Assembly (NCBI GenBank): GCA_000004985.1
Contig: GG738915.1
DNA: 64,000 bases
Strand: one strand, 5' to 3'
Source: Naegleria gruberi
Lineage: Eukaryota
The first letter of the stretch is position 1; every line of letters starts with the position of its first letter. Below the pieces are notes generated by a model that was not told where the DNA came from, did not search any database, and worked only from the letters and a program-made list of their open reading frames with translations. Positions 4,715 to 31,267 of this stretch are shown one piece after another. The translations under genes and the position numbers were made by a program.

Positions 4715-5719
4715 ATGGCAGGAGGAGGTTCAACCTACAAATCGACAGAACCAATCGGAACTGGTAGAATATTCTTTTATTGCATTGTTTGGCTGATATT
4801 GGTGATTGGTCTATCGTTTATGAATAAAGCAGTATTTAAATGGACAGAATTCAAGTATCCAGTGCTGCTGTCGACTGTACATATGATTATAAATTGGTTG
4901 ATGGGAAGTTTTGTGTGGGGAAGGATGAATGGAAAGATAAAGGAGGAAGAGGAAAAGAAGGGTCATGATTTGAGACATTTAATAATGTACTTCTCATTGT
5001 TATTTGTATTGAATATTGCTTTCGGAAATATGAGTGTCAAGGCAGTGAATTTATTGTTGAGTCAAGTTTTCAGATCTTCAATGCCAATATTTATAATGAT
5101 TTGTTCGGTTGTGTTGGGTGTTGGAAGTAGACCTAGTACACGCGTTATTCTCACTGTTTTACCAATTATTATTGGAGTTTATTTGACTTGTAAGAAAGAT
5201 GACAGTAAGGTTAGCTCAAATACTGAAGAAGATTTATTGAATATCAAATCATTGGCTATTTTATTAATTGGAAACATTATGTGTGCTCTCAAAACTACTC
5301 TTACCAATAAGTATCTCAATCAGTACAAGTTCCATCCAATTTATTTATTGAGTAAGCTTTCAATGTGGAGCTCTTTTGGAATGTTTGCTTTTGCTGCAGT
5401 GACTGGAGAAGTTTCAGACCTTTTCAACAATAATTTACATGTTTTATATAATGTCAAGACAGTTGGATTTGTCATTTCTACAGGATTTGTTGCATTCCTA
5501 TTGAACTATTTCAATTTCCTTGCCAATTCCTCTACAAGTCCACTCACAATGGGAATTTGTGGATTGTTACATCAAGTGCTGACAGTCTACCTTTCTACCA
5601 TTGTTTTTGATACATCTTTGAATCAAACTAATGTGATTGGTATTTGTCTTGCAATGATTGGCAGTGCTCTCTATACTTTTGTAAAGTATTTAGAAGCTCA
5701 AAAAGTAAAATCAAACTAA
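4715..5719 (+). CDS. multi-pass membrane transporter, DMT superfamily (triose-phosphate / nucleotide-sugar transporter-like), 334 aa
   Basis: aaaaaATG start. About 10 hydrophobic helices in a ~330-aa protein, the typical size and organisation of TPT/NST carriers. Family assignment rests on topology and length only. Confidence 0.55.
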   Translation: MAGGGSTYKSTEPIGTGRIFFYCIVWLILVIGLSFMNKAVFKWTEFKYPVLLSTVHMIINWLMGSFVWGRMNGKIKEEEEKKGHDLRHLIMYFSLLFVLNIAFGNMSVKAVNLLLSQVFRSSMPIFIMICSVVLGVGSRPSTRVILTVLPIIIGVYLTCKKDDSKVSSNTEEDLLNIKSLAILLIGNIMCALKTTLTNKYLNQYKFHPIYLLSKLSMWSSFGMFAFAAVTGEVSDLFNNNLHVLYNVKTVGFVISTGFVAFLLNYFNFLANSSTSPLTMGICGLLHQVLTVYLSTIVFDTSLNQTNVIGICLAMIGSALYTFVKYLEAQKVKSN

Positions 5720-7382: not shown

Positions 7383-9155
7383 TTAGTTGTCGTCTACTGT
7401 ACTCTCCTTTAACACAGCATCTTCAAAATTTTGGATTTGATGATCAATAAAGTGTTGAAAACGAGAACAGTCACTAACTTTCCATTCAATTTCATTCCAT
7501 TTCGAAAGTAATTTAAACATCATGCTGGAGAAAGAGGATAGATCTTTAAGAATTTGAACTTTTTTCAATTTTGGTGGTTTAAACTGTTGCAATAACTCAA
7601 TATCTTTGTACGATGAAAATGTACATTCCAATGCAATTAAATTCTCATAGTTTTTACCCAATTCTTCAAAAAATTCTTTTGGAAATTCTCCAATTGTACA
7701 AATAATACTTAAATATTCCAAATTTCTCAGTACATCCAATTTAATAAAATCCATCAATTGCTCCTTTCCACTGATTACCACTGATAATCTCCTTAAATGT
7801 TTTAAATGTTCAATCTTTTCCAAATTTTGAGAGATATCTGAATTTGTAAACAGCGATTCCAAATTATTCAAACATTCATTAGAAAACATATTAAAATCTA
7901 TATCTCCTAGGACTTTGATACGTAAATGCTTCAAATTTTTAACTAAGCTCAAATTACTCAAACTAAATGCCAAATCTTTGGTCGCATATAAATTAAATAC
8001 TAATATTTCTAAATTTCTCAATGTATTATTACTGAAAAATTTTTCAGTGTCCTTAAATACTCTCGAAACTATTTTCAATATTTTCAGATTTGAAAAGTTA
8101 TATTTCCATACATGATTAAGACAATAACTGGCTTGATCAGTGTCTTGTGAATAATCAATCCTTAAGTATTTTAAATTTAGAATCATATCAGTGTCAACAA
8201 CCTCATCATCTTGCTCACTTGCATCTATCATGTATGCTTTTAAAATTTCTAATGTTTTAATATTATTTAGAAGCATTATTAGTTGCTTTTCACCATCGAG
8301 CTGTATATCCAAAACTGAGAGGAGTTTCAAATTTAAAATCCGAGAAATATTACTAAATAGATCATCAATTCTCAATATTCTAAGACAGTCAGTATAATTA
8401 TTGATAATTGGTGATAGTTTTTTCATAATATCATACTCCTCCATTGAAATATCTAAAAGTTTCAAATTATATAAATTTCTGTCTTTTAATTCTATTTTGT
8501 TATAACTAGTTTTAATTTTTATAAATTGTATGGTAGGTTTCTTGAAATGGAATGTGAAAGTTTTATCATTTTCCTCAAATAACCTCTTAATGACAAGGTG
8601 TTTGATGTTTACACATTTGAGAATTAATTTTAATAGAGAATCGGGTTCATACTGAGAAAGTATTTCCAAATTTTCTATTTGAATTAAATCACAGTTAGGT
8701 ATTAGAGTAGATTTCCTTATCAATAAATTTTTAATAGTATTAATAACATTCCTAAATTGTTTTGAAACTGTCAAGTATTTAAAAATCTCAAAATCATAAT
8801 TTAAATATGCAAATATGTTACATAATACATCATCACAAAATAATTCCGAACAGGTTTTGATTTGTTTGGTTTTCAACAGTTTATCGTGATCCATATCTTG
8901 ATCACTAATTTCCTCAAATTTGCGTTTGTTCTTATTTTCATCAGTGCTACTTCCATTTGATTTTAATTTACATAATTCAATTTCCAATTTTAATTCTTCC
9001 TGTCTTGCTTTTGCTTTGGCTTCTTCTTGAGTGAATTGTAATTTCAACTTCCACAATTCAAATATTTGCTCCGAAGAGAGTCCAAGCCTTTGACATTGTT
9101 CAATGAAACCATCAGAGTCCCCACCATCCTTTAACACAGCATTTTGTTGCGGCAT
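7383..9155 (-). CDS. F-box / leucine-rich-repeat protein, 590 aa
   Basis: Reverse-strand ATG in aaaaaATG context. Acidic/coiled N-terminus, then an F-box-like block (CSELFCDDVLCNIFAYLNYDFEIFKYLTVSKQFRNVINTIK), then repeated L-rich ~25-aa units. Confidence 0.7.
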   Translation of the reverse strand: MPQQNAVLKDGGDSDGFIEQCQRLGLSSEQIFELWKLKLQFTQEEAKAKARQEELKLEIELCKLKSNGSSTDENKNKRKFEEISDQDMDHDKLLKTKQIKTCSELFCDDVLCNIFAYLNYDFEIFKYLTVSKQFRNVINTIKNLLIRKSTLIPNCDLIQIENLEILSQYEPDSLLKLILKCVNIKHLVIKRLFEENDKTFTFHFKKPTIQFIKIKTSYNKIELKDRNLYNLKLLDISMEEYDIMKKLSPIINNYTDCLRILRIDDLFSNISRILNLKLLSVLDIQLDGEKQLIMLLNNIKTLEILKAYMIDASEQDDEVVDTDMILNLKYLRIDYSQDTDQASYCLNHVWKYNFSNLKILKIVSRVFKDTEKFFSNNTLRNLEILVFNLYATKDLAFSLSNLSLVKNLKHLRIKVLGDIDFNMFSNECLNNLESLFTNSDISQNLEKIEHLKHLRRLSVVISGKEQLMDFIKLDVLRNLEYLSIICTIGEFPKEFFEELGKNYENLIALECTFSSYKDIELLQQFKPPKLKKVQILKDLSSFSSMMFKLLSKWNEIEWKVSDCSRFQHFIDHQIQNFEDAVLKESTVDDN

Positions 9156-9531
9156 TTTTTGGTATCTTTACGATACTAAAAATTTTCAAGCTTACAGTTT
9201 TGCTTGTGGTAAAACATGTTTTACCTGATGAATGTAGTCTCCAATTTTGAAGGATGATAGAATGGAGAGACATTCAAACAGGTTTCTCTCCGGCTTATTG
9301 ATAAATATCGAGCAAATGAATTAATTAAGGGTTTTACTAAGGCACTTTATGCTCACTTGTTGTAAATTGGACAAGATTGTGGAAAATATCAATGATCAAT
9401 CTCTGAATTGAATGCAACTACCCAGGTTAAAAAATAATATTATTGGGGTAATAAGCTTCCTTCTTAGAAGAATTGGCCCAATAACTTTTCCCACCAAAAT
9501 TAGAGTTTGAAATTGTAATATTTAAAAAAAA

Positions 9532-11513
9532 ATGAAAATAACGCTCGGTTTCAAACCAGGCGTTTTTAATGCTCTTGTTCAAGTGCCTGATCTTTTCAGT
9601 GTTATTCTTCAATATTTGGATTGTTCCTCATTGTTTGCCCTAACGATGGTGAATAAGAAATTATTTGGATTATTTGATGAGAGTAAAATTGATGAATTGG
9701 TTCAATCATCATCGGAAGAGGTGTTGAACGTTGTGACAATTGATCCTAATTTATGGTTGAATTTGGTTTCATACTATGAAGAAAGGTTGAGAAAATTAAA
9801 ATTGGAGTTTAATTCTAACGATTTGTAAGTTGGCTTATCAAGTAGTTGAATATTTACTTGTTTTCTAAAAGCTATCGATACTATCCAATGAACGTAAATT
9901 TTCAAGAATATATTGAGCTTGTGAAGCCAAAAACAACAGAGAAGGAAAATGTAAAAACTAGCAGTATTAGAGAAATACTTGAAATTATTGTTGACTGTAG
10001 GAAAAAATTGAAAAGGTTGTACTCTGATTGTTGGAAACAAAAGAAACCTGAAGAATATGGTGTTGAGTTTTCCAAGAGTGGAAGATCTAGTTGTAAAACT
10101 TGTTTTAAGCCAATTCCATACGGAGTTCTCAGAGGCTATCAGGACAACCACGAAAACTATTACAAAGCTCATGAATGTCACCATTTGACTTGCTTTTATA
10201 AAATACTATTGACTGAAAATGTACGTGAAGAAGATGTGAAATATGAAGAGGAGAAACAAAAAGCAGCCATTTCCAAGCTTTATGAGTTTATAGCAAAGGA
10301 GAAAAAATTAATACAGAAATCAAAGTGGCAATGCACCACTTGTGATGGATGTAATGTACTATTGAATGGAGATGCATACATGTCAGCAGAAAAAGGAAAG
10401 ATGGATCTATGTGCAAAGTGCTATGTCACTAACGATGAGCTGGTTTCTGGAAAAAGTGAGAAGGGGCCTTTTGTCCCTACCCCTCCTTTAAAACCTTTCC
10501 AAAAATGTAGATATTGTAAGGAACAGATCAAAAGGGTCTTATTTAATTGTCATCAATGTAATATTGGCTTTTGTGGAGAGTGTTTAAAATCCTTAAGGTG
10601 GTTTGATCACAAAAAACACTTTATTAATGTAATTGGAAATGCTCTTGATGATGAAATGAAATGTTTAACTGCTGACTTCAAACCTGAAGATGCTAAACCA
10701 TTACCAGTGAGTGCTTATGAAAGGTTTTCTGTTCTGGATTTGATGGAAGAATTTTTAGGAGAATCTAAAAGGGATGCAGGTCAACCAACTCCTTCTGAAA
10801 GATTCACAGCTACCCCCAACAAGAAAACAGATCTATCAGGGATAAAGTCACAAAAAACTGCAACAATTACAAAACCAAGTAATAACGAATCTAACCACTC
10901 TTCTAAAACCAACACTCAACCAAAGAAGCCAGAAAGTACAAAACCAACAACCGAAAAACAAGTTCAAAGCAACTTGAAACTCTCCAAATCGCAACAAGCT
11001 AGTTCCAAGACAATCCCTCAGAAGTCTTCTGTTCAACAAACTCTTTCATCAACAACTTCTAAAAAAAGAGTTTTAATTGAATTGAGCTCTGATGAAGAAT
11101 CAGAAGATGAAATCGATCTAAAGAAATTAGAGGCAACTACAGGATCTAATGAGATTCCAAAATTAAAACCTGAAGTAGTTATTGCCTCAAAAGTTGAACC
11201 AGCCAAGAAGAAATCAAAACAAGAGAAATCCAAGAAGAAAGAAAGCAAGGAAAAAACAAAAAAGAAAAAACCAAAGAAAGAAGAAAACAGTGATGAAGAG
11301 AATGACGAAATCTACCTTGTGGAAAAGCTGTTGGATAGAAAAATAGTGCATGGAAAGCCATACTATCTAGTAAAGTGGGAAGGTTATCCCAACTCAGATA
11401 ACTCGTGGGAACCAAACAACAATATTTCACCAGATCTAATTGAAGATTTTGAGGAGGAATTTGAGAAAAACAAGCCACGAGTAGCAAGCAAGACGAAGAA
11501 GAGAAAAATATAG
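9532..11513 (+). CDS. F-box + ZZ-type zinc fingers + C-terminal chromodomain protein; two exons (9532-9824, 9872-11513)
   Basis: aaaaaaaaATG at 9532. F-box-like VPDLFSVILQYLDCSSLFALTMVNKKLFGL. The upstream ORF ends in ttG|TAAGT (donor 9825). The AG at 9870-71 restores the frame into the long downstream ORF, giving a 47-nt intron. Downstream are C-x2-C...C-x2-C ZZ-like fingers (WQCTTCDGCNV...LCAKCY; CRYCKEQ...CHQCNIGFCGEC), a K/S-rich linker and a canonical chromodomain (EIYLVEKLLDRKIVHGKPYYLVKWEGYPNSDNSWEP). Confidence 0.65.
9825..9871 (+). other. predicted 47-nt spliceosomal intron (GTAAGT...TTTTCTAAAAG)
   Basis: Donor GTAAGT overlaps the in-frame TAA. The acceptor is phase-compatible. Only ~60 nt would otherwise separate the F-box ORF from the next ATG. 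Confidence 0.55.
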
Positions 11514-11726
11514 AGACACCATATTAAGAATAACACCAGGAACATTACAATTTGGAAGTTAAAACTCAGAAAATTTAACCATTACGAAATTAAATTTCAG
11601 GAATGCAGTATTACAAAAGAGTAACTTCAAATTATAGATAATGAAATATTTGAAAACACATACTGTAATTGTAACATGCGCATCAATCTCGAATGAACCC
11701 ACCATTATTGACATTTTACAAAAAAA

Positions 11727-12896
11727 ATGATTCTCTCCTTCCTTCATCTAATCACCTGGTTTACTTTTCGCACATTAGTTCTACTCTTCTCCATCTATCG
11801 TTTCATTATACAACTCTACAGAAAATATTACCATCATAGGGATGAGAAAAATCACCATGATGGAAAAGAAGCATCTAACGAAACAATATTATGGAACAAG
11901 TTGATGAAGGTTGGACTAAAAATTAATCATACTAGCGTGGCCAAGTTTAGAGAGGCTTCTAGAAAGCAAATACCTGTCTTGTATCCTAAATTGGAAGACA
12001 CTTTGTTTGGCTGTGCAACAAAAGTGGAAAAGATTGAAAAATTGAGAGATTCACATTGGATTACAATGAAAGGTTGTAAAGAAATGAAAAAAGTCATGCT
12101 CTTTATTCATGGAGGTGGCTTCATATCTGGCTCTTCTTTAGGACTTGATCTTCAATCAACAGTCTATGGTATTAAAGATTTCAATAAGAAACATAAGAAT
12201 AATGAAAATTTGATTAGCCATGTATTATCTGTTGAATACAGATTGGCAGAGGATCCTAAGTTCTACGAAACCATGGACAAGAGAACACTTACATCGAATC
12301 TCAGTGATCAATTAGAAGACTGCTTTGATTGTTTCAAATATTTAATTGAGGAAAAGAACGTACCAGCTAAGGATATTATAATTTCTGGTTTCTCTGCTGG
12401 TGCATGTCATTCTGCATTGTTGGTTTTGAAAAAATTGATGAACAGCCAGTCTTGGCCCCTTCATTCGGTTGCACTATTTTCAGCTCCTTGTGATTTATCA
12501 AATGCTGTAATTAAAGCTGACAAGTGGAAGGAAGAAAACGTTTTGATCTTGAATCAGGGACTTGTTAATTTGATTAATAGATGTATTCCAATTGAGGAAA
12601 AGAAGAATTATTCAATTCTTCAAACAATGTTGGAAATGGAGAAACAAGATGAATCATTTTATAACAAATTACTTCAAACCAAATGGGTAATCAACTATAG
12701 TAATCACGAAGAGCTAACCCCTGGAAATGAATACTTGTCTCAATTACTAGAATCTAAATCTCATCAAATTAATCCAAGACAAGTGGCTGTTGTTACAGAA
12801 AATCATCAAATGCATTGTTATCCAATTGCACAATATATATTATCTGAAGGAAACCGATCTATGGAAAAGGTATTGTTAGAGGCAATAAATCTCTAA
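11727..12896 (+). CDS. alpha/beta-hydrolase fold esterase/lipase (hormone-sensitive-lipase / arylacetamide-deacetylase-like), 389 aa
   Basis: caaaaaaaATG start. N-terminal hydrophobic anchor. HGGGF oxyanion-hole motif (LFIHGGGFISGS) and GxSxG nucleophile elbow (GFSAG). Confidence 0.75.
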   Translation: MILSFLHLITWFTFRTLVLLFSIYRFIIQLYRKYYHHRDEKNHHDGKEASNETILWNKLMKVGLKINHTSVAKFREASRKQIPVLYPKLEDTLFGCATKVEKIEKLRDSHWITMKGCKEMKKVMLFIHGGGFISGSSLGLDLQSTVYGIKDFNKKHKNNENLISHVLSVEYRLAEDPKFYETMDKRTLTSNLSDQLEDCFDCFKYLIEEKNVPAKDIIISGFSAGACHSALLVLKKLMNSQSWPLHSVALFSAPCDLSNAVIKADKWKEENVLILNQGLVNLINRCIPIEEKKNYSILQTMLEMEKQDESFYNKLLQTKWVINYSNHEELTPGNEYLSQLLESKSHQINPRQVAVVTENHQMHCYPIAQYILSEGNRSMEKVLLEAINL

Positions 12897-12979
12897 CTCT
12901 TTAGTCCAAAACAACATTATCTCCACAAGATTTTGACATTTACCACATCAAGATTGTAACTAACATTGAAAAAAACAGA

Positions 12980-14184
12980 ATGGTGGGATTGAATGGAACG
13001 AATACAACTATTGTAGCCGAAACATCTAGGGAAGAGTTTGGACCATTTCAGTACATGATTTTCGGGGTCAATATTCCCTTTCTGATAATATATTCAATTC
13101 TATTTAGTGCTACCTTGATTAGTTTGATATTTAGTGTAAAGAAACAAGATAAGACGAAACGGAAAACCTTCTACATCCTTATACTTGTTCTGTCCTTGCT
13201 GTTTGCAGTCATTTTGAATTTACTTACAAGAATTGGTTCCGAACTTTGCTATTTCGAAACTGATCCGGATAGACTTGAACGAATATATGGACTGGTAAAG
13301 GCTATTGACAGAACCATGATAGGATTTACAATGTCTATGGAACTTTTATTAATTGATTACATGTCTTTTCTATTGTAAGTACTTAGAATACTTTCCATTT
13401 TATGATGATTAGTTTGGAAACAACTTGGAAAGTGAGCCATTTCATCTAAGCATTTCAAAATTGCTAAGTTTATAACTTTTGGATTGGCTTTGGTTGTTTT
13501 GATTTGTTTAATGTTTCTTCTGAGTGGATTTTTAGTATTAGGAGGTTTCTTTTACGTTTATGGAAATCTTGGGATATTGAATACGATACTGACTTGTCTA
13601 TTTACTGCCTCTGCTATATTGGTAGGGGTTGCTTCCAGTATGCTCCTGATAAACACTCATGTAGGTTTCTAATTATTTAAAATTTGAACAAAATCAATTA
13701 GTATTGTGGGAAATTAATGCTGAAAACACTTGTTAATGGAAGAAAACAAGCCATGACACTTTCCTCATCTCCACCACAATTGAAAGAAAGTTATGATTTG
13801 AAAACAAGAGCCCTCAAGAAAGTGTGGAGTATCATTATTGTAGTTACACTAACTTCTGTTTTTCAGATTATTGGATTTATTTTCACTCCATTATCAATGG
13901 TGGATCATTTTATGATGAGTGGATTTCATATATGTTACAATATATCAATAATGGTCCTTGTAGTTCTGTATTTATATTTATATGGACCTGTGAAGGAATT
14001 TCAACAATTATTCGAAAAGAGAGATTCAAAAGATTTGACAACCATTGTGACTGCATTCGATTCAACAGGATCTGAACGGATTCAGAAAGGATTAACCTTA
14101 TCACATGTTTCGCCTGTGTCTCCTACCGATAGTGAAATAACCTCCAGGCAGGAATTGTTTCAGATAACAAATTCTAGGATATAA
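12980..14184 (+). CDS. seven-transmembrane (GPCR-like) receptor gene, ~3 exons, copy A
   Basis: ATG at 12980 (aaaaacagaATG). N-terminus carries N-glycosylation sites (NGT, NTT). Six to seven hydrophobic helices, short basic intracellular loops, a long K/R-rich third loop and a Ser/Thr-rich C-tail. Intron 13661-13701 (GTAGGT...TTAG, 41 nt) is phase-consistent and identical in copy B. Exon 1 ends in ttG|TAAGT (donor 13375). The phase-compatible acceptor is AG 13523-24 (150-nt intron). The AGs at 13450/13468 would give a cleaner 7TM topology but are 1 nt out of phase, so the first junction is uncertain. An alternative start is ATG 13511. Confidence 0.5.
13661..13701 (+). other. predicted 41-nt intron (GTAGGT...ATTAG) in the 7TM gene
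   Basis: Joins ..LLINTH to YCGKLMLKTLVNGRK.. Without splicing, two tiny ORFs 44 nt apart result. The sequence is identical in copy B (29827-29867). Confidence 0.5.
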
Positions 14185-14444
14185 CAAAATACTTTATTAA
14201 GACATGCTGAATAACTTTAAATCTGAATTATTATTAATATTAATATTCAATTCATTATGTTGCATAACAGTACTTTGCAACATTATGATGGAAACTTAAG
14301 TTGGAGCAGATTACAATAGTGGAATGATAAGACAAGATATCGTACTCAATACGTAAAGCTTCATAAATTAGAAAGGTGAAAATAGACTTCAATTCTTCCA
14401 CTATCCTTCTAATTATCCAATCACGACTTGAAAAAATCAAAAAA

Positions 14445-15631
14445 ATGAAAACACTCATCAAGGTACGATTTTTTCTTTTTCAAAATGATGATTAAATATT
14501 ATCTTTATGTCGGAATGGAAAATTCAAACTCTTATTTTCATAATTTTAATGTATTTAATATATTGATAGATTAAATATTTTCCTCCTGTCATTGTTGTCT
14601 TGACAGCAATTTCTCTCCTATTTTGTATAGTTTTGAGCTTGTTAACAGCACCAGATAGTGTTTCTAAACATTTGCCTGCCCTGAGTGAAACAGGAATATT
14701 TCCTCCGACAAAATATATTTTCACAGCATCCCTTGTGATACCATCCATATGTTTAATAGTTGGAGCAATTTTGCAATTTATTACAACAAAGGAAAAATTA
14801 ACCTCATTGGATCATCAACGACACACTTTAAATTATTGTAATGGATGTTTTAGAATGGGATGGTTGAGTATTGCATCCTGTATTTTTGCTTTGATTTCAG
14901 GATTTTGTTTACTTGGACTTGGAATTGTGCCAATTATGGGAGGAGAAGTTATTGATGATAGTTTACTTTCGAATTCTACTACCTCTACTACTGTATCTTT
15001 TATAACTAGTTCTACTAGTCAACAGTCAGCAGAATCAATTGAAATTCTTCCATATACCATCATTCACTTGATATTTACATTCTTCTTCATGTCAACTGTG
15101 TTTATTCACATGGTACTCAATACCATTTTCAATGTAGTAAGTGCAATTATAGTAATTATTTATTAAGCGGAATGCATCACCAATTCATTTAATATCCAGT
15201 TATATGATAAGAAAATTTCTCCAAAAAAGAAAATTCTCAATCCTTGGGTTATTGTAAAAATTGTCAGTTCATGCTCATTCTTGGTTGTGGGGCCAATCTT
15301 TAGTTTTATTATGGGAATTTTAGTTACAGTCACATGTTCTCAAACTGAGGTTATTAACAAGACTTGTCCACTCATGAATTTATTCCAATTATTCCTTGGA
15401 GCTCTATCTCAATACAGTATTGTTGCCTCAATTTTAGTTTTCATGCTCACTTACATGTATGATTTCAAAGATGCATCCATCAGTATTAATGCTGAAGATC
15501 CAAGAAATGATATTCAAGAGAGGTTATCAGGACTTTCCTTAGAAAAGGATTTTGAATTGGAAGAGGACGATCTTGGAGCAGGAGACACCAACAGATTACA
15601 CACTCTTGAGGATGAAGACGAATTTAATTAA
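14445..15631 (+). CDS. multi-pass membrane protein of unknown family, 3 exons (14445-14462, 14570-15136, 15200-15631), copy A
   Basis: Mini-exon ATGAAAACACTCATCAAG in aaaaaaATG context. 107-nt AT-rich intron GTACGA...TTGATAG, which carries a 10-bp indel in copy B. Exon 2 has no ATG for ~95 codons. GTAAGT at 15137, then AG 15198-99 (or 15228-29) continues the frame into exon 3. At least six TM helices, a Ser/Thr-rich extracellular loop (SNSTTSTTVSFITSSTSQQSAE) and an acidic C-tail. Confidence 0.5.
14463..14569 (+). other. predicted 107-nt intron
   Basis: GT...AG, ~80% AT, phase-consistent. Conserved with an indel in copy B (30726-30841). Confidence 0.55.
15137..15199 (+). other. predicted 63-nt intron (GTAAGT...ATCCAG); alternative acceptor 15228-29
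   Basis: The single in-frame TAA between two same-frame hydrophobic ORFs lies inside a GTAAGT-initiated segment. Confidence 0.45.
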
Positions 15632-16294
15632 GCAATTAATCATTCCATTAAAACGACAAGGAATTATGAAACTGGTTCATTAACATTTTTGGCAACTGAG
15701 AAGACATTATTGGCCACCATAATAATTGTAATCCTTTGTCATTTTAATGAAATTGATGACCAATAGTATGTTTCTATCTTGTTACTTACTAAATTTCCTT
15801 GTTTCTTGTCAATACCTTTCAAATAAAGAACGCAAACGTACAGATCTCATACTTCCAATTCGTTGTAACGTTCATCAGGTGAAGTGATGAACAAGAACAA
15901 CAACAAAATAATCGTTGCAATTACAATTTCAAAAAACAATCCTACACAACTCAACTGAAACCAATTCCTTTTTGATAATTTTATTATTATCACAACAACA
16001 TTAGATTCAGTAGTTTTTGAAGATAATACCTATCCTAAGGAATAGCATCATTCGTTTGAGCGCACAAAACTTCAACCAGTCCATCACTTCTTGTCCGTCT
16101 CACCAATATCTTACTCACCACCTTATCACACAAAATATCGTACTCGACAATACAATAATAACATCCGCACAATAGCAGCGGCTGTTCTTTAGGTGTATAT
16201 TAAAATATTCTTCCTTCATCATTTCTAACGGCCTGATTAACAACAAAACAACATACGAGACAAGTACATCAAGCAAAATTTATTTTAAAAAAAA

Positions 16295-18247
16295 ATGACG
16301 AGTCATCAAACAGGGCAGAGTTCGTCTTTTACGGTTCAGGCGGGCGGCTCATCCTCTTCTTCGACAGTAGTTCCTCCTTCGTCTTCATCATCATCGGGTA
16401 GTGCTGCTGATAGTAACAATAACAATTTGAAGGCAACTAGTGAAAATCATAAAAATGATGATGCCAAATCAACAACAAGTACAAATAGTAGTTTACATCA
16501 ACAACAACAACAACACAGCGAATTAAACATCTCTGGAAATAATTTAAATGTTTTGGTTACACCTGTAGCATTGGATGGAAAGTCTGAGCCATTATCTCCT
16601 ACAGCACACAGAAGAGCAACATCAATTTCATCAAATGGATATCCAGCAAATACACCAGCAACACCTGTCCATCCACAATTTACTTCTCATCCTGAAGATG
16701 ATAATGATTCTGATAATGGAAAATTAAAAGGAAAAAAGAACAAGAAGAAAAAGTGGCATGTCAATGCTATGGGTGAAATTGTTTACAAGGAACACAATTC
16801 ATATAATTTAATGCGTCAAATCCAAATGGGTATTAGATCTGCAATCAGTGAAATAACACCTAAAAAACAAAAAGATGTACTATTACTTAAGGATTTTACT
16901 AATATTAACAAAATGCCGTTTCCAGAAAAGGGATCAACAAGAACACCTCCACACGAATTCCCATTCTTTGATTTTTATGATTACTCACCATTTCCTTTTA
17001 GACATTTGAGAGAACGTTTTGGTATTGATGCTTCCAATTATCTTGTTTGTTTATGTCATGAACTGTCTCTCTCAATTCTTGGCACTCCTGGTAAGAGTGG
17101 TGCTCTCTTCTTTTTCTCTGCTGACATGCAATACATGTTAAAGACTGTAACAAAAAAGGAATCAAAATTCTTGAGAAAAATTTTGCCAGATTACTATAAC
17201 CATGTTATGGCCAATCCAAACACTCTCATTACTCGTTTTTATGGAATGTATAGTATAAAACCTCGAGGAGGTAAAAATGTAAGATTTATTGTCATGAACA
17301 ATGTGTTTGACACAACAATGTATGTTTCTGAGAGATACGATTTAAAGGGTTCAACTGTTGGACGAGAAGCATCAGAGAAAGAAAAAAAGAGAGAAACACC
17401 AATTTATAAGGATTTAGATTTTTTGAGGAGAAGTAGCAAGTTAAAAGTTGGACCTCAAATGAAGAATCTCATTATGAATCAACTTCAAGTTGATGCTACA
17501 TGGTTGGAAAAGATGAAGATCATGGACTATAGTTTACTAGTTGGTGTTCACAGATTGGATCCTGAATTGGATGCAGAAGTATTGAAAGAAGCTCAAAATT
17601 GTAATATCAAATTGTCAGATTCTGACATTCCTTCGGAAGCTTTTACTACTGTATTTAATCATGGCTCAAGTGTGGCTTCAAGTTCAATGACTTCTACATC
17701 ATACTTAAACGGAACCGATCAGGGAACAGGCGCTTCATCTTCTTTAAATACTACAAATCCAATTTCAGATCATCATGACCAAGTTGTAAATAGTACAGAT
17801 ATTGCCATTGAGGTTAGTGATGAATCTCATCCAACATTGAATGGTTCATCAAGCACCAAAACCATAGAAAATACACCATCAACACATCATCCAACAAGTA
17901 TGTCAACTACTACACAGGACAGCAGAAAGAGTAGTGAAAGCACCTCCTCATTCTTTGGAAGATTTATGAATCACAGACTGAGTGTTTCTTTGAAAAAACA
18001 CTACAGAGGTCCACGTGCCTCTCTATTCCAACAATTCCATGGTGGTACACTGTCACTTCCTTTAGAGGATGGTAGCCGTGAAATTTACTACTTTGGTATT
18101 ATTGATTTGTTACAAAAATGGAATAACAAGAAACAAATAGAAAATATTTTCAAGGGCCTTGTAGCTGACAGAAACCAAATTTCTGCAGTCTCACCAAAGA
18201 ATTATGCAATGAGATTTGTAAAATTCTTGGGAGATGGTTTACAATAA
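16295..18247 (+). CDS. phosphatidylinositol-4-phosphate 5-kinase (PIPK family, Mss4-like) with an S/Q-rich N-terminal extension, 650 aa
   Basis: aaaaaaaaATG start. PIPK catalytic-core motifs GKSGALFFFSADMQYMLKTV, RFYGMY, RFIVMNNVF, MDYSLLVGVH and the C-terminal IIDLLQ block. Confidence 0.85.
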   Translation: MTSHQTGQSSSFTVQAGGSSSSSTVVPPSSSSSSGSAADSNNNNLKATSENHKNDDAKSTTSTNSSLHQQQQQHSELNISGNNLNVLVTPVALDGKSEPLSPTAHRRATSISSNGYPANTPATPVHPQFTSHPEDDNDSDNGKLKGKKNKKKKWHVNAMGEIVYKEHNSYNLMRQIQMGIRSAISEITPKKQKDVLLLKDFTNINKMPFPEKGSTRTPPHEFPFFDFYDYSPFPFRHLRERFGIDASNYLVCLCHELSLSILGTPGKSGALFFFSADMQYMLKTVTKKESKFLRKILPDYYNHVMANPNTLITRFYGMYSIKPRGGKNVRFIVMNNVFDTTMYVSERYDLKGSTVGREASEKEKKRETPIYKDLDFLRRSSKLKVGPQMKNLIMNQLQVDATWLEKMKIMDYSLLVGVHRLDPELDAEVLKEAQNCNIKLSDSDIPSEAFTTVFNHGSSVASSSMTSTSYLNGTDQGTGASSSLNTTNPISDHHDQVVNSTDIAIEVSDESHPTLNGSSSTKTIENTPSTHHPTSMSTTTQDSRKSSESTSSFFGRFMNHRLSVSLKKHYRGPRASLFQQFHGGTLSLPLEDGSREIYYFGIIDLLQKWNNKKQIENIFKGLVADRNQISAVSPKNYAMRFVKFLGDGLQ

Positions 18248-18307: not shown

Positions 18308-20065
18308 CTATTGTACAAGGCATTTACTACCGCTTGGTGTTGGCTTCTTTCCCAAGATATTCATCTTTGTAAATGGAGTCCTGGTTGTTGGACAACTTGC
18401 AATTAAAATATCACCATTTCCATCTCCTCCAATTAAAGCTTCATCATCCATTTCCAAACTCATTACTCCACTTGTAGGAATAAAGTTTACAACTTTCCAA
18501 GGACAGTTCTTAGTATCATTTCCAACCATCACTCCAGATTTGATAAATTTATCAATTTGTGGTGCTTCAGCAAGTTTTGAACCATTCAATGATTGAGCAA
18601 ATTCATCTGTTGTCATAACGACAACTCCAAGCTTGGATCCAACCACAATCTTTTGACCATCAAATTGTAATCCTCTAATAGCTCCCAATCTGAAAACATC
18701 CATATCATATAATATAGAAGGATCTGGATTTTCCTCTTTTGATGAAGAAGATGAAGAAACTTTTCTATAGTCAATAATTTGAATAAATCCTCTATCAGAT
18801 CCAGCTAGGAATAGATATTTTCCTGCCGATGGATCAAAGCATGAAGCATTGACTTCATAGAGATATGCATCAGTAAATACCTCTCCCACAACATTGGAAG
18901 ATCTTGTATCGAAAATCTTGATATACTTATCTGCAGAGGCAGTAAGAAAGAGATCTGAATATCTTCCAGATGGATTACAATCGACATCATAGATTGCACT
19001 CTTGTGAGTGGAAACACCATTCTTATCACAAATCAAAGTTTTCACTTCTTTCATAGTGGAAGCATCGAATATTTTGGCCACACCATCAGCTCCACCAGTT
19101 ACAAAGCTACTTTCATTAATAATTCTCAAATTCCATATACCATTCTTGTGATTGTGGGGAACACGTCCGATATTCTTCATAATTTCCCCATCCTCAGCCT
19201 CTGGATCATAGGAACCATAATTCAATATATTGGAAAATCCTCCAGTCACTAGAAAGTTTGGAATTCTATGTTGTTGAGTATCAATGCACCACAGCAAACT
19301 TCTCTCTTCATAAGTTTCCTTCCATTCATATTTATATTCTACATTGCTTACATATTGAGTTTCATCATCAAATGCAGCTTTTCCATTCACTTCAATATCA
19401 TAAAAATTAACACTGTGAGAACAGGTCATTAAATGAATCTTGTTATGATCACTGGTCGATCTTAGGAATGTCAGATAATTAATTCCAACACCAGGATCTG
19501 GTAATTCAGGTTTCTTCTCACAAGAAGCAAATGTCTTTTTATGATTGATAAAGAAATCATTTTCCATTTGATTTTCCTCTCCTTCTCTATATCCTCTAAA
19601 TTTATACCATCCCTTATAGAGTGTCAAATGTTCATATTTGAAAATTTCATAGAGTGAATGCGCATTTGTATTCTCAAAAACTCGACGTCTTACTATACTT
19701 TTTTGTGAGGGAGGAATTTCAAGGTGGGTTTTTTCATCATTTGTTGAAGATGAATTATTTTCATTTCTAATAAATTGTTTCCACAATGCATCATTCCTCG
19801 ATGTATACAAAAAGGTTGAATTTACCAATGAAATATTTAAAATAATTTCCCTATATTCAAGGAATGAAAATATGAGAATTAAAACATCTTCGGGAACATC
19901 AGTTACATGATCCAATGAAGAATCACCCAATTTAAATGGTCCTATTTCATCTACATTATTAGTAGAAACTACTCTTTCCGAAACATCATTTAAAACATTT
20001 TCATTTGGTTGATCATCAACATCTTCATCAACATGAGAGGATGAACCTGTTGGTTGTTGAAGCAT
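18308..20065 (-). CDS. F-box / WD40-repeat protein, 585 aa
   Basis: Reverse-strand aaaaaaaATG. F-box DVLILIFSFLEYREIILNISLVNSTFLYTSRNDALWKQF. WD-like repeats (GGADGVAKIFD, TASADKYIKIFD). Confidence 0.7.
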   Translation of the reverse strand: MLQQPTGSSSHVDEDVDDQPNENVLNDVSERVVSTNNVDEIGPFKLGDSSLDHVTDVPEDVLILIFSFLEYREIILNISLVNSTFLYTSRNDALWKQFIRNENNSSSTNDEKTHLEIPPSQKSIVRRRVFENTNAHSLYEIFKYEHLTLYKGWYKFRGYREGEENQMENDFFINHKKTFASCEKKPELPDPGVGINYLTFLRSTSDHNKIHLMTCSHSVNFYDIEVNGKAAFDDETQYVSNVEYKYEWKETYEERSLLWCIDTQQHRIPNFLVTGGFSNILNYGSYDPEAEDGEIMKNIGRVPHNHKNGIWNLRIINESSFVTGGADGVAKIFDASTMKEVKTLICDKNGVSTHKSAIYDVDCNPSGRYSDLFLTASADKYIKIFDTRSSNVVGEVFTDAYLYEVNASCFDPSAGKYLFLAGSDRGFIQIIDYRKVSSSSSSKEENPDPSILYDMDVFRLGAIRGLQFDGQKIVVGSKLGVVVMTTDEFAQSLNGSKLAEAPQIDKFIKSGVMVGNDTKNCPWKVVNFIPTSGVMSLEMDDEALIGGDGNGDILIASCPTTRTPFTKMNILGKKPTPSGSKCLVQ

Positions 20066-27938: not shown

Positions 27939-29631
27939 ATGAGGAATTTTCGACAATACAAATCATCGACTGTACAGGTATCTCCACGAAATGGTGGGTA
28001 CGTTCATCATCCTCATCCTCCATCAACAGTGAAACATTCAGCTGCTGATGGAATGAATGCATCTCCCAACAAGGGAGAGAAAAAGACATTTTCTGAAACA
28101 ATGAGTGACAACTCTTCACAGCCCAACACTAGTGCTGTTGAACCATTGTGGCTGTATGGATATGCATACTTTTCATTGGATAAAACTATATGGGGATTGT
28201 TATTGGATTTGGAGAAAAAGTTTGATGCTGGTCAAATTGACAAGATTCAATCACTTCCTTCACCTTCATCCTCTCTTAATAGTGGTACTTTCACTTTTCA
28301 ACCTCCAAAACCAAGTGTGAGGATAAAACAATTGAAACCAACAAATATTGAGCTTCTGAATCAATCATTTATGGATTATTCTAATGCCAACTTTAAAGAG
28401 TGTTTGAAGAATATTCAAATTTTGATAGAACGAAAGATTTCCATGTTTACCGACACAACAGAGGACAGATATGAACTGAATTTATCTTTATCTCTATTTT
28501 CAATTATCATTCTGAATTATTCAACTGTTTTGTCAACTCAATACCAGAGCTTTCACAACAGCATGGAACTATTGAAAGTTGGAGAAATGATGCTGAAACA
28601 CTTCAAGAGCGACCAATTGAAAGATTATTTCACATCTCTATTCAGCAGTGCCATGTGTAATTATTACAAAAAAAGAAAAAAATATAACATGATGTACAAA
28701 TATTCCAAACAAGCCTATGAAATGTACAGTCAAACAGGAACAAGCATTTATGCTCAATATATTTTGCAAACGTATGCCACTAGTTGTCTCTTTCGCAAGA
28801 AGTATGAGGAAGCAATTGAGTGCTTTGAAAATAACATTTTTTTGTACAAAAACCAAATTCCAAGCACTTCTGTACAAACAAGCTTGCTAGATTATTTCAA
28901 TAGAATTTTGACATTCATTTGCGACAATGAGTATTTCATAATTATTAATAAGTGCTTTAATACCTTCAATTATGGTGTGGCACTATTTGAGACGAAACAG
29001 ATGGTTCCTAGTCGATACTACCTCTTTCAAGCTATTGATATAATGAATCACCACCTCAGTTCCCACCACGATATAATTATAGAGAAACGATGGCTCAAGT
29101 CCATGATTAAGGTGTATAGAATTGTGACCTCTATTTGTGAAAACCAACCATACAATGATTGCAACATTTCCATGCATGCAATTTTTAATAAGGGAAAACC
29201 AATGGTGGATCCACTCGAGCCAGCATTTAAAAACGAAAGGTACTATATTACCACACTGAACAAGGCAATACACTATGTCATTCTAGAAAATGAAAGACAA
29301 GAAGTTATGGCAAGAGCAGAGATTGACGCCGAGGAATATAGGAGAGTGAAGAAACTGGTTAGCATACTCCCCCTTTTGAAAGTGGATCCATATTTTGGTA
29401 AAATTATGAGCATTGAAAAATCAGTTAAGGAGAAGAAACAAACCATTCCACAGGCCATGTCCTTTGCTAAGAAAGCACTCAAATCTTCGAAAATATTTCT
29501 CACTCCTCTAAAAAGACCTGAAGAAACAACATTGGATGAAAGTAATAATATCCTCAATAATTCATTTCTACTCGATGATTATGGATATATTTCAAAGACA
29601 CCTTCAGAATCACCAAGATCTGCTATCATTA
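27939..29631 (+). CDS. hypothetical protein, >564 aa, 3' end lost in a 50-N gap
   Basis: ATG at 27939. Long uninterrupted ORF running into the N-run at 29632. S-rich N-terminus. No family recognised. Confidence 0.55.
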
Positions 29632-29681
29632 NNNNNNNNNNNNNNNNNNNNNNNNNNNNNNNNNNNNNNNNNNNNNNNNNN
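29632..29681. other. assembly gap (50 N)
   Basis: Run of n separating the gene at 27939 from repeat copy B. Confidence 0.99.
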
Positions 29682-30350
29682 TCTTCTGAGTGGATTTTTA
29701 GTATTAGGAGGTTTCTTTTACGTTTATGGAAATCTTGGTATATTGAATACCATACTGACTTGTCTATTTACTGCCTCTGCTATATTGGTAGGAGTTGCTT
29801 CCAGTATGCTCCTGATAAACACTCATGTAGGTTTCTAATTATTTAAAATTTGAACAAAATCAATTAGTATTGTGGGAAATTAATGCTGCAAACACTTGTT
29901 AATGGAAGAAAACAAGCCATGACACTTTCCTCATCTCCACCACAATTGAAAGAAAGTTATGATTTGAAAACAAGAGCCCTCAAGAAAGTGTGGAGTATCA
30001 TTATTGTAGTTACACTAACTTCTGTTTTTCAGATTATTGGATTTATTTTCACTCCATTATCAATGGTGGATCATTTTATGATGAGTGGATTTCATATATG
30101 TTACAATATATCAATAATGGTCCTTGTAGTTCTGTATTTATATTTATATGGACCTGTGAAGGAATTTCAACAATTATTCGAAAAGAGAGATTCAAAAGAT
30201 TTGACAACCATTGTGACTGCATTCGATTCAACAGGATCTGAACGGATTCAGAAAGGATTAACCTTATCACATGTTTCGCCTGTGTCTCCTACCGATAGTG
30301 AAATAACCTCCAGACAGGAATTGTTTCAGATAAAAAATTCTAGGATTTAA
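29682..30350 (+). CDS. 7TM GPCR-like gene, copy B (5' part lost in gap); exons 29682-29826 and 29868-30350
   Basis: About 99% identical to 13516-14184. Differences in the coding part are 5 synonymous and 2 nonsynonymous (K/Q, T/K). Same 41-nt intron. Confidence 0.5.
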
Positions 30351-30707
30351 CAAAATACTTTATTAAGACATGTTGAATAACTTTAAATCTGAATTATTAC
30401 TAATATTAATATTCAATTCATTATGTTGCATAACAGTACTTTGCAACATTATGATGGAAACTTAAGTTGGAGCAGATTACAACAGTGGAATGATAAGACA
30501 AGATATCGTACTCAATTGATTTCTTACTAATTACACTAATTGGTAATTATGCTTGATTCCAGTTCTACAGTATTGTATGGATTCAAAGATTGTAAAGTTT
30601 CATTTCTATTTACTAGTATCAAACAATTAGAAAGTTGAAAATAGACTTTCAATTCTTCCACTATCCTTCTAATTATCCTTTGAATCACGACTGAAAAAAT
30701 CAAAAAA

Positions 30708-31267
30708 ATGAAAACACTCATCAAGGTACGATTTTTTCTTGTTCAAAATGATGATTAAATATTATCTTTGTGTCGGAATGGAAAATTCAACTCTTATTTT
30801 CATAATTTTAATGTATTATCATGTATTTAATATATTGATAGATTAAATATTTTCCTCCTGTCATTGTTGTCTTGACAGCAATTTCTCTCCTATTTTGTAT
30901 AGTTTTGAGCTTGTTAACAGCACCAGATAGTGTTTCTAAACATTTGCCTGCCCTGAGTGAAACAGGAATATTTCCTCCTACAAAATATATTTTCACAGCA
31001 TCCCTTGTGATACCATCCATATGTTTAATAGTTGGAGCAATTTTGCAATTTATTACAACAAAGGAAAAATTAACCTCATTGGATCATCAACGACACACTT
31101 TAAATTATTGTAATGGATGTTTTAGAATGGGATGGTTGAGTATTGCATCCTGTATTTTTGCTTTGATTTCAGGATTTTGTTTACTTGGACTTGGAATTGT
31201 GCCAATTATGGGAGGAGAAGTTATTGATGATAGTTTACTTTCGAATTCTACTACCTCTACTACTGTA
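30708..31267 (+). CDS. multi-pass membrane gene, copy B (3' part lost in the 31-kb gap); exon 1 30708-30725, exon 2 30842-31267
   Basis: Identical mini-exon MKTLIK. The intron carries a 10-bp insertion relative to copy A. Exon 2 shows one synonymous difference. Confidence 0.5.

Follow-up and report, generated by a model that had tools for sequence, protein, structure and literature searches.

Two adjacent genes for multi-pass membrane proteins, here called gene 1 and gene 2, lie on the plus strand between positions 12980 and 15631 of the window, the 64,000-nucleotide (nt) stretch of Naegleria gruberi DNA analysed here (assembly GCA_000004985.1, contig GG738915.1). A first-pass annotation made from the letters alone had proposed both as spliced genes; homologs now back them, and they are two real, independent protein-coding genes of N. 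gruberi NEG-M, so that the reference annotation misses at least two genes within a 3-kb stretch. We consider it probable that gene 1 is a three-exon gene for a seven-transmembrane (7TM) protein resembling G-protein-coupled receptors (GPCRs), whose assembled copy has suffered a 2-nt deletion, that gene 2 belongs to the Frag1/DRAM/Sfk1 family, and that the two stand side by side by chance. Apart from the gap in the annotation, both are ordinary eukaryotic membrane-protein genes.

Gene 1, its relatives and its reading frame

Gene 1 (12980-14184) runs from an ATG at 12980 to a TAA stop at 14182-14184 and encodes a product of about 375 amino acids (aa) in three exons. Exon 1 (12980-13374) codes for the N-terminus, with NGT and NTT sequons at residues 5 and 8, and for transmembrane helices TM1-TM3, and ends in phase 2 (..TT/GTAAGT). 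It is followed by a 38-nt intron (13375-13412, GTAAGT...TTAG), by exon 2 (13413-13660), which encodes intracellular loop 2 (FLETTWKV[R]AISSKHFKIAK), TM4 and TM5 and within which the frame changes, by a 41-nt phase 0 intron (13661-13701, GTAGGT...TTAG), and by exon 3 (13702-14184), which encodes a third intracellular loop rich in Lys and Arg, TM6, TM7, a Ser/Thr-rich tail and the stop. The features on which the first-pass annotation had based its likeness to a receptor are all found in the sequence: besides the sequons there are a basic intracellular loop 1 (KKQDKTKRK), a TM5-TM6 loop with 9 Lys or Arg among 43 residues, and a C-terminal tail of 56 residues, 30% of them Ser/Thr.

The spliced protein brought up no relative in a word-indexed search, and the family profile, with the candidate filter saturated, gave only P0022 of N. 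lovaniensis. A search with exon 1 alone among 1.84 billion proteins returned, besides the exon itself, 18 relatives at E values of 9e-15 to 6e-4 and identities of 26-37%, and exon 3 independently matched the same proteins (E 3e-8 to 4e-4). Full-length proteins, of 361-466 aa, account for six of the relatives, all named 'hypothetical proteins', namely C9374_004508, _009517, _005944 and _010845 of Naegleria lovaniensis and ABK040_002571 and _003444 of Willaertia magna; the remaining 12, from ENA, JGI and Logan assemblies, are open reading frame (ORF) fragments from unannotated contigs. The six are true homologs, 23-28% identical to gene 1 over their full length, and have in common with it both intron positions, the seven-helix architecture and a series of motifs (N.PF before TM1, KRNQ, TRIxAE, KxxDR, FLETTRK, KxxALKK, QxIGF and YxP after TM7). 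Full-length similarity, motifs and intron positions thus all place gene 1 in a heterolobosean orphan 7TM family typified by C9374_004508. Its N. lovaniensis and Willaertia members are paralogs rather than clear orthologs, with tails and third intracellular loops of varying length; none is syntenic with gene 1, and all are uncharacterized and give no function. The family is multi-copy and is known so far only from Heterolobosea (Naegleria and Willaertia) and metagenome contigs.

The relatives also clarify the splicing of gene 1. As assembled, the GTAAGT donor at 13375 has a single stop-free, in-phase acceptor, at 13524, whereas the acceptors at 13450 and 13468 lead into an open frame yet are 1 nt out of phase. 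The first-pass annotation had seen this conflict, which is real in the assembled sequence, and had called the first intron ambiguous, with a length of 150 nt for the in-phase acceptor; here we depart from that length. The conflict exists because 2 nt have been deleted from exon 2 of the assembled copy, and the real intron 1 is the one of 38 nt. The full-length homologs are colinear with exon 1 and the whole of exon 2. Two of them, P0018 (...HLFLVTTRKVGAISEKKFKLLRFLV...) and P0012 (...MVFVRSSKDIGAISEKRFKIARYCIV...), continue without a break across the junction, and their high-scoring segment pairs in tblastn span exon 2. With the 38-nt intron removed, the window itself reads ...FLFLETTWKV and then, one frame over, AISSKHFKIAKFITFG, a stretch identical to P0012 at 8/13 residues and to P0018 at 7/13.

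Evidence at the DNA level comes from an independent contig, L003 (952 nt, 98.2% identical to window 12700-13627), from run ERR1078381, labelled metagenome. In a blastn alignment GTGAGCC of the window corresponds to GTGAGAGCC of L003, so that 2 nt (GA) are missing from the window; this alignment and the spliced translation of L003 place the frameshift at about 13432-13437. Once the 38-nt intron is taken out, L003 is open to the end of the contig and translates to the same residues as the window, with WKV-R-AISS in addition. Both introns occur in the N. lovaniensis paralog C9374_004508, at the same position and in the same phase (TT/GTAAGT...CAG/T and AAC/GTAAGT...TAG/ATC), and 11 of the 12 fragment ORFs end exactly where exon 1 ends, at the TAA within the GTAAGT donor, which makes the position of intron 1 a property of the whole family. 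Homolog colinearity, the open frame of L003 and the intron positions common to the paralog together lead to three exons separated by introns of 38 and 41 nt. As a side observation, DNA from run ERR1078381 (contigs L003 and L005, project PRJEB11402) is 98% identical to NEG-M at this locus, and a close wild relative or strain of N. gruberi was therefore present in that sample.

Two other ways of splicing the assembled letters have been weighed. The 150-nt intron (13375-13524) owes its appeal to being the sole in-phase, stop-free partner of a strong GTAAGT donor. It would, however, take out the conserved motif FLETTRK along with intracellular loop 2 and TM4 up to its middle, joining TM3 to TM4 and leaving six helices; it exceeds the conserved family introns about fourfold in length, and the intact allele in L003 requires no such intron. 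We can give it hardly any credence. An interim idea was that splicing restores the frame by means of a 19-nt micro-exon (13413-13431) followed by a 37-nt intron (13432-13468, GTGAGC...CTAAG), to give a 362-aa 7TM protein. The model gives an open, continuous frame, and the same splice would stay in frame in the intact allele; it keeps seven hydrophobic helices, and its intron sizes resemble those of the other two introns. It costs 13 residues of intracellular loop 2, and the segment that it discards, AISSKHFKIAK, is homologous to coding sequence of the paralogs, as the identities given above attest. As splice sites, GTGAGC and AAG are weaker than those of the four other introns, whose donors read GTA[ACG]G and whose acceptors read TAG or CAG, and no family member shows an intron at this position. 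Since the homologs and L003 mark the supposed intron as conserved coding sequence, the idea was demoted, and we now hold it to be very improbable.

A second copy of 13516-14995 is found further along the same scaffold, at 29682-31267 on the plus strand. It is 97-99% identical, forms a 1.6-kb contig between two runs of N (29632-29681 and 31268-62617), and extends from within gene 1, whose 3' two-thirds it contains, through the spacer into the 5' part of gene 2. N. gruberi has been reported to be heterozygous (PMC9928731), so the second copy is most simply an allelic contig placed in the scaffold; most likely it is a mis-placed haplotype contig of NEG-M, that is, a false duplication rather than a true one. 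The listed ORF at 27939-29846 crosses the 50-N gap and is partly an artefact. Coding changes between the two copies comprise six synonymous and two non-synonymous substitutions (five and two in gene 1, one synonymous in gene 2). All indels are non-coding: the 260-nt spacer and intron 1 of gene 2 hold all 110 indel columns, besides 10 substitutions. Where the exons of L003 and the window differ, all three substitutions are synonymous (3/3), against 13 substitutions and one indel in the flanks and intron 1. This pattern argues that both genes are under constraint and that their ORFs are not products of chance.

The loss of 2 nt could also be a true allele, which would make the NEG-M copy of gene 1 a recent pseudogene or null allele, with an intact copy possibly on the other haplotype. 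The deletion drops one unit of a GAGA repeat, a plausible slippage mutation, and the reported heterozygosity, the divergent second-haplotype contig within the same scaffold and the absence of gene 1 from the annotation would all suit such an allele. Set against this, an assembly or base-calling error would give an identical picture, the other changes in gene 1 relative to L003 and the second copy are synonymous or conservative only, and the gene contains no further stops or frameshifts. The second contig begins 80 nt too far downstream to decide the matter, and scans of metagenomes found no further alleles of the frameshift site and no close relatives. We think a true deletion allele possible but somewhat doubtful. 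The three-exon structure with introns of 38 and 41 nt is the one used below.

Predicted fold and orientation of the gene 1 family

AlphaFold models were obtained for two homologs from alignments of 18-21 family sequences: P0022 of N. lovaniensis (predicted local distance difference test score, pLDDT, 74.9; predicted template-modelling score, pTM, 0.73) and P0007 of W. magna (pLDDT 83.2, pTM 0.79). Each has seven long helices, joined on the outside by very short loops, and a TM5 and a TM6 that reach into the cytoplasm, and the hydropathy of the window protein agrees with seven helices. In Foldseek searches against the PDB all 50 matches listed were GPCRs, although the matches were weak (E 6e-3 to 0.08, TM-scores 0.26-0.53). 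The target figures for the P0022 and P0007 models, respectively, were 18.5 and 17.6 for Ste2, 17.5 and 16.8 for TAS2R, 17.3 and 16.6 for GPR156, 17.2 and 17.6 for AdipoR2, 15.8 and 15.5 for TMEM87A, and about 15 for both with microbial rhodopsins; being similar across seven-helix folds, they point to a generic seven-helix bundle and single out no GPCR class.

Each full-length member has 19-28 Lys and Arg residues in its cytoplasmic zones vs 2-6 in its outer zones, and the N-termini of nearly all family members carry between one and six N-x-S/T sequons. This bias and these sequons argue for an N-out/C-in orientation, as in GPCRs and opposite to PAQRs, and the gene 1 product is predicted to have seven TM helices, an extracellular N-terminus and a cytoplasmic C-terminus. 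Ten residues are invariant in the family (R84, E88, K107, D110, R111, E121, K249, A252, L253 and Q270). The charged cluster R84, E88, K107, D110 and R111 lies on the outward extensions of TM2 and TM3, E121 lies some 10 residues further along TM3, and Q270 is in TM6; a second invariant group is a basic patch just before TM6.

The first-pass annotation had been unable to place gene 1 in a known receptor class, and profile searches bear this out: no Pfam GPCR family (7tm_1/2/3, Frizzled, Dicty_CAR, STE2, STE3, Git3 and others) was found at E <= 1 in the window protein and seven family members. No other Pfam family gave a credible match in the seven members, even at that threshold, and PDB chains were matched neither by the single gene 1 sequence nor by the family profile. 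The class A motifs D/ERY (end of TM3), CWxP (TM6) and NPxxY (TM7) are absent from the family alignment, which at these sites has FLETTRK, QxIGFxFIP and, after TM7, (I/L)YxP(L/V/M). The fold and topology predicted for gene 1 are GPCR-like, without a sequence link to any GPCR class. The earlier description as GPCR-like is supported in its seven helices and its orientation, to which the predicted fold is added; a GPCR function is unproven.

Several points weigh against the account of gene 1 given here. Every Foldseek E value exceeds 1e-3, the models are of homologs 23-28% identical to gene 1 and not of the window protein, and the family lacks both a Pfam GPCR match at E <= 1 in any of the seven members and the class A motifs. 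N. gruberi has Trp in place of the Arg in FLETTRK, the conserved motif of intracellular loop 2, and the 2-nt deletion, if real, breaks this allele. The splice junctions of both genes, too, are placed by homology and consensus only. As stated at the outset, we nonetheless consider the account as a whole to be probable.

The family might instead consist of seven-helix proteins that do not couple to G proteins, such as a PAQR-like hydrolase or receptor, a trafficking protein of the GOST/TMEM87 type, a transporter or a channel. PAQRs and adiponectin receptors (AdipoR2, 5lx9) have an N-in/C-out orientation and a His3-Asp zinc site. The gene 1 family is instead predicted to be N-out, from its N-terminal sequons and its strong bias of positive charge to the inside, and its alignment contains no invariant His and no invariant His/Asp set to fit the zinc site, which speaks against a place among the PAQRs. 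The retinal-binding Lys that microbial rhodopsins have in TM7 is absent from the window protein and its homologs. No GOLD or other luminal domain is present in the family, and the 50 Foldseek matches listed, weak as they are, were all to GPCRs. Seven-helix proteins of some other kind are a possibility that we take seriously without thinking it the probable one, and the GPCR-like bundle remains our preferred description.

Gene 2 and the neighbourhood of the two genes

Exon 1 of gene 2 (14445-14462) has six codons, MKTLIK, and is separated by an intron of 107 nt (14463-14569, GTACGA...ATAG) from exon 2 (14570-15136), which encodes TM1-TM4, the motif LPALSETGIxPPTKY and a Ser/Thr-rich loop. A phase 0 intron of 63 nt (15137-15199, GTAAGT...CCAG) precedes exon 3 (15200-15631), which encodes TM5-TM6, an NKT/Cys loop, an acidic C-terminal tail and the stop. 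All of these features lie on the plus strand. The spliced model is open, and its 338 aa form the continuous protein with at least six hydrophobic helices that had been foreseen. The six-codon first exon and the two introns, also foreseen, match the N. lovaniensis and N. fowleri orthologs: MKTLIK aligns with MAFTLK, the start is confirmed by the ortholog alignment (MKTLIKIKYFPP vs MAFTLKIRYFPP), and the second junction, NV/LYDKKISP, aligns with HVMYDKKIS. By tblastn the N. lovaniensis ortholog has introns at both sites, the first after the opening few codons. The introns of both genes had been called very short, which suits those of gene 1 but not the 107 and 63 nt of gene 2.

The guess that gene 2 belongs to Frag1/DRAM/Sfk1 proved correct: residues 8-126 match Pfam PF10277 with an E value of 1.1e-14 and a score of 55 bits (cut-off 30.3). 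The best relatives are C9374_004625 of N. lovaniensis and an N. fowleri protein (E 1e-110) and a Willaertia protein (E 2e-73), all of which carry PF10277 in precomputed annotation. Full-length identity is 57% to the two Naegleria orthologs and 43% to that of Willaertia, and exon 2 is 54% identical to N. lovaniensis in tblastn; identities to the N. fowleri and N. lovaniensis orthologs span 51-57%. The motif LPALSETGIxPPTKY is invariant in four heterolobosean sequences, in the first extracytoplasmic loop, and together with the six hydrophobic segments it agrees with membership of the family. From these comparisons gene 2 is the N. gruberi ortholog of C9374_004625 and an unannotated member of a well-known family. 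By family it would be a membrane-lipid or organelle homeostasis factor and not a receptor. A search of PDB sequences with gene 2 gave only noise and matched no solved structure.

The Ser/Thr-rich loop (encoded at 14960-15037, plus strand) lies between TM3 and TM4 and would be extracytoplasmic if the usual N-in six-helix topology of the family holds. Its 26 residues are 62% Ser/Thr, which is in keeping with the earlier description of a mucin-like loop; the glycosylated surface protein read from it is unproven. Nowhere does the ortholog alignment vary more or hold more indels than in this stretch, of whose sequons only N141-S-T is invariant.

Although adjacent in N. gruberi, the two genes are neighbours by chance, and their adjacency has no functional meaning. 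In N. lovaniensis the Frag1 ortholog is flanked by a TPT transporter gene immediately upstream and by an RGS gene downstream. In N. gruberi the corresponding TPT-family transporter (4715-5719, 60-74% identical to N. lovaniensis TPT at L001 8800-9910) is about 8.7 kb upstream of the Frag1 gene, and five extra genes, gene 1 among them, lie between the two in N. gruberi only; the 8.7 kb represent a lineage-specific insertion or rearrangement. The surroundings of the Frag1 ortholog, out to 10 kb, yielded no relative of gene 1 in either N. lovaniensis or Willaertia.

Two members of the Sfk1/TMEM150 group, yeast Sfk1 and human TMEM150A, have ties to phosphatidylinositol (PI) 4-kinase function, and the next gene along in N. 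gruberi encodes a PIP5K (XP_002670454, 16295-18247, an exact protein match). A functional link of gene 1, gene 2 and this kinase, whether on a GPCR-PIPK or on an Sfk1-PI-kinase theme, was considered and rejected: no TM domain is present in the PIP5K, and neither N. lovaniensis nor Willaertia has these genes side by side. With an RGS gene at the PIP5K position in N. lovaniensis, the pairing of Frag1 with PIP5K looks coincidental. GPCR-PIPK fusions are known in Naegleria (PMC5784254), but nothing connects the kinase here with gene 1 or gene 2.

The DNA of the window is eukaryotic and rich in AT (about 33% GC), and it is interrupted by one 31-kb stretch of N (31268-62617) and by two short ones. 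Six of its long ORFs are exact annotated proteins of the 260-kb N. gruberi NEG-M scaffold (e.g. XP_002670451 and XP_002670452). Judged by the order of GenBank and UniProt accessions, the interval 9155-16295 holds a single plus-strand gene model (EFC37709 / D2VZS4), whereas ORFs and homology back four genes there, including the 7TM gene and the Frag1 gene; a chromo + zf-PARP protein (9846-11513) and an alpha/beta-hydrolase (11727-12896) are supported in the same way. The reference annotation is thus incomplete in this interval. Neither gene 1 nor gene 2 gave a self-match in protein searches, so both lie outside the reference protein set, and an exact look-up of ten possible products (two contiguous ORFs as checks, and spliced, repaired and fragment versions) found none on record in a collection of 15 billion proteins. 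One of the two missed genes was probably left unannotated because of the 2-nt frameshift. On the minus strand the region is bordered by genes for two F-box proteins of similar size, 590 and 585 aa (7383-9155 and 18308-20065), which may be members of an expanded family. A scan for bacterial promoters and terminators gave counts at chance level and is irrelevant for a eukaryote.

Comparison with known systems

Members of PF10277 include PGAP2/Frag1, the N-domain of Cwh43, DRAM1-5, TMEM150A-C and yeast Sfk1. Gene 2 has the six helices of this family and its first-loop motif, LPxxSxTG..P....F, and the UniRef name of its N. lovaniensis ortholog is 'CWH43-like N-terminal domain-containing protein'. 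The Ser/Thr-rich TM3-TM4 loop and the acidic tail are features of its own lineage, and its subfamily may be PGAP2-, DRAM- or Sfk1/TMEM150-like. Sfk1 has been described as a conserved plasma-membrane protein of the TMEM150/FRAG1/DRAM family that affects phospholipid asymmetry (PMC5935070).

For gene 1 the comparison is with GPCRs, among them Ste2 (class D), TAS2R (class T), GPR156/GABA-B (class C) and class A. It is interesting to speculate how such a protein might work. Its N-terminus, predicted to be extracellular and N-glycosylated, leads into a GPCR-like bundle of seven helices, and the protein may act as a sensor at the cell surface, binding a small or charged ligand on its outer side and signalling through its cytoplasmic loops, possibly to one of the many G-alpha subunits of Naegleria, the Ser/Thr-rich tail perhaps serving as a site of phosphorylation. 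A bolder proposal is that the family is a new, Heterolobosea-specific class of true GPCRs, the missing exchange factors for slow-exchanging G-alpha subunits, with the charged outer hairpin of TM2 and TM3 as ligand site; this we regard as speculative and rather unlikely. The family lacks human homologs at the sequence level, which could make it interesting with regard to the pathogen N. fowleri. Naegleria has many G-alpha subunits, some of them slow-exchanging, and arrestin-like genes, and N. fowleri has 28 7TM-RGS proteins, yet almost no recognizable GPCRs are known from Naegleria, with one cAR-like candidate only (PMC9283941). The gene 1 family fits the picture of missing GPCRs drawn in that study of N. 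fowleri G proteins, and, as an expanded, lineage-restricted family with GPCR topology and fold, it provides a concrete set of candidates for the missing receptors of Naegleria.

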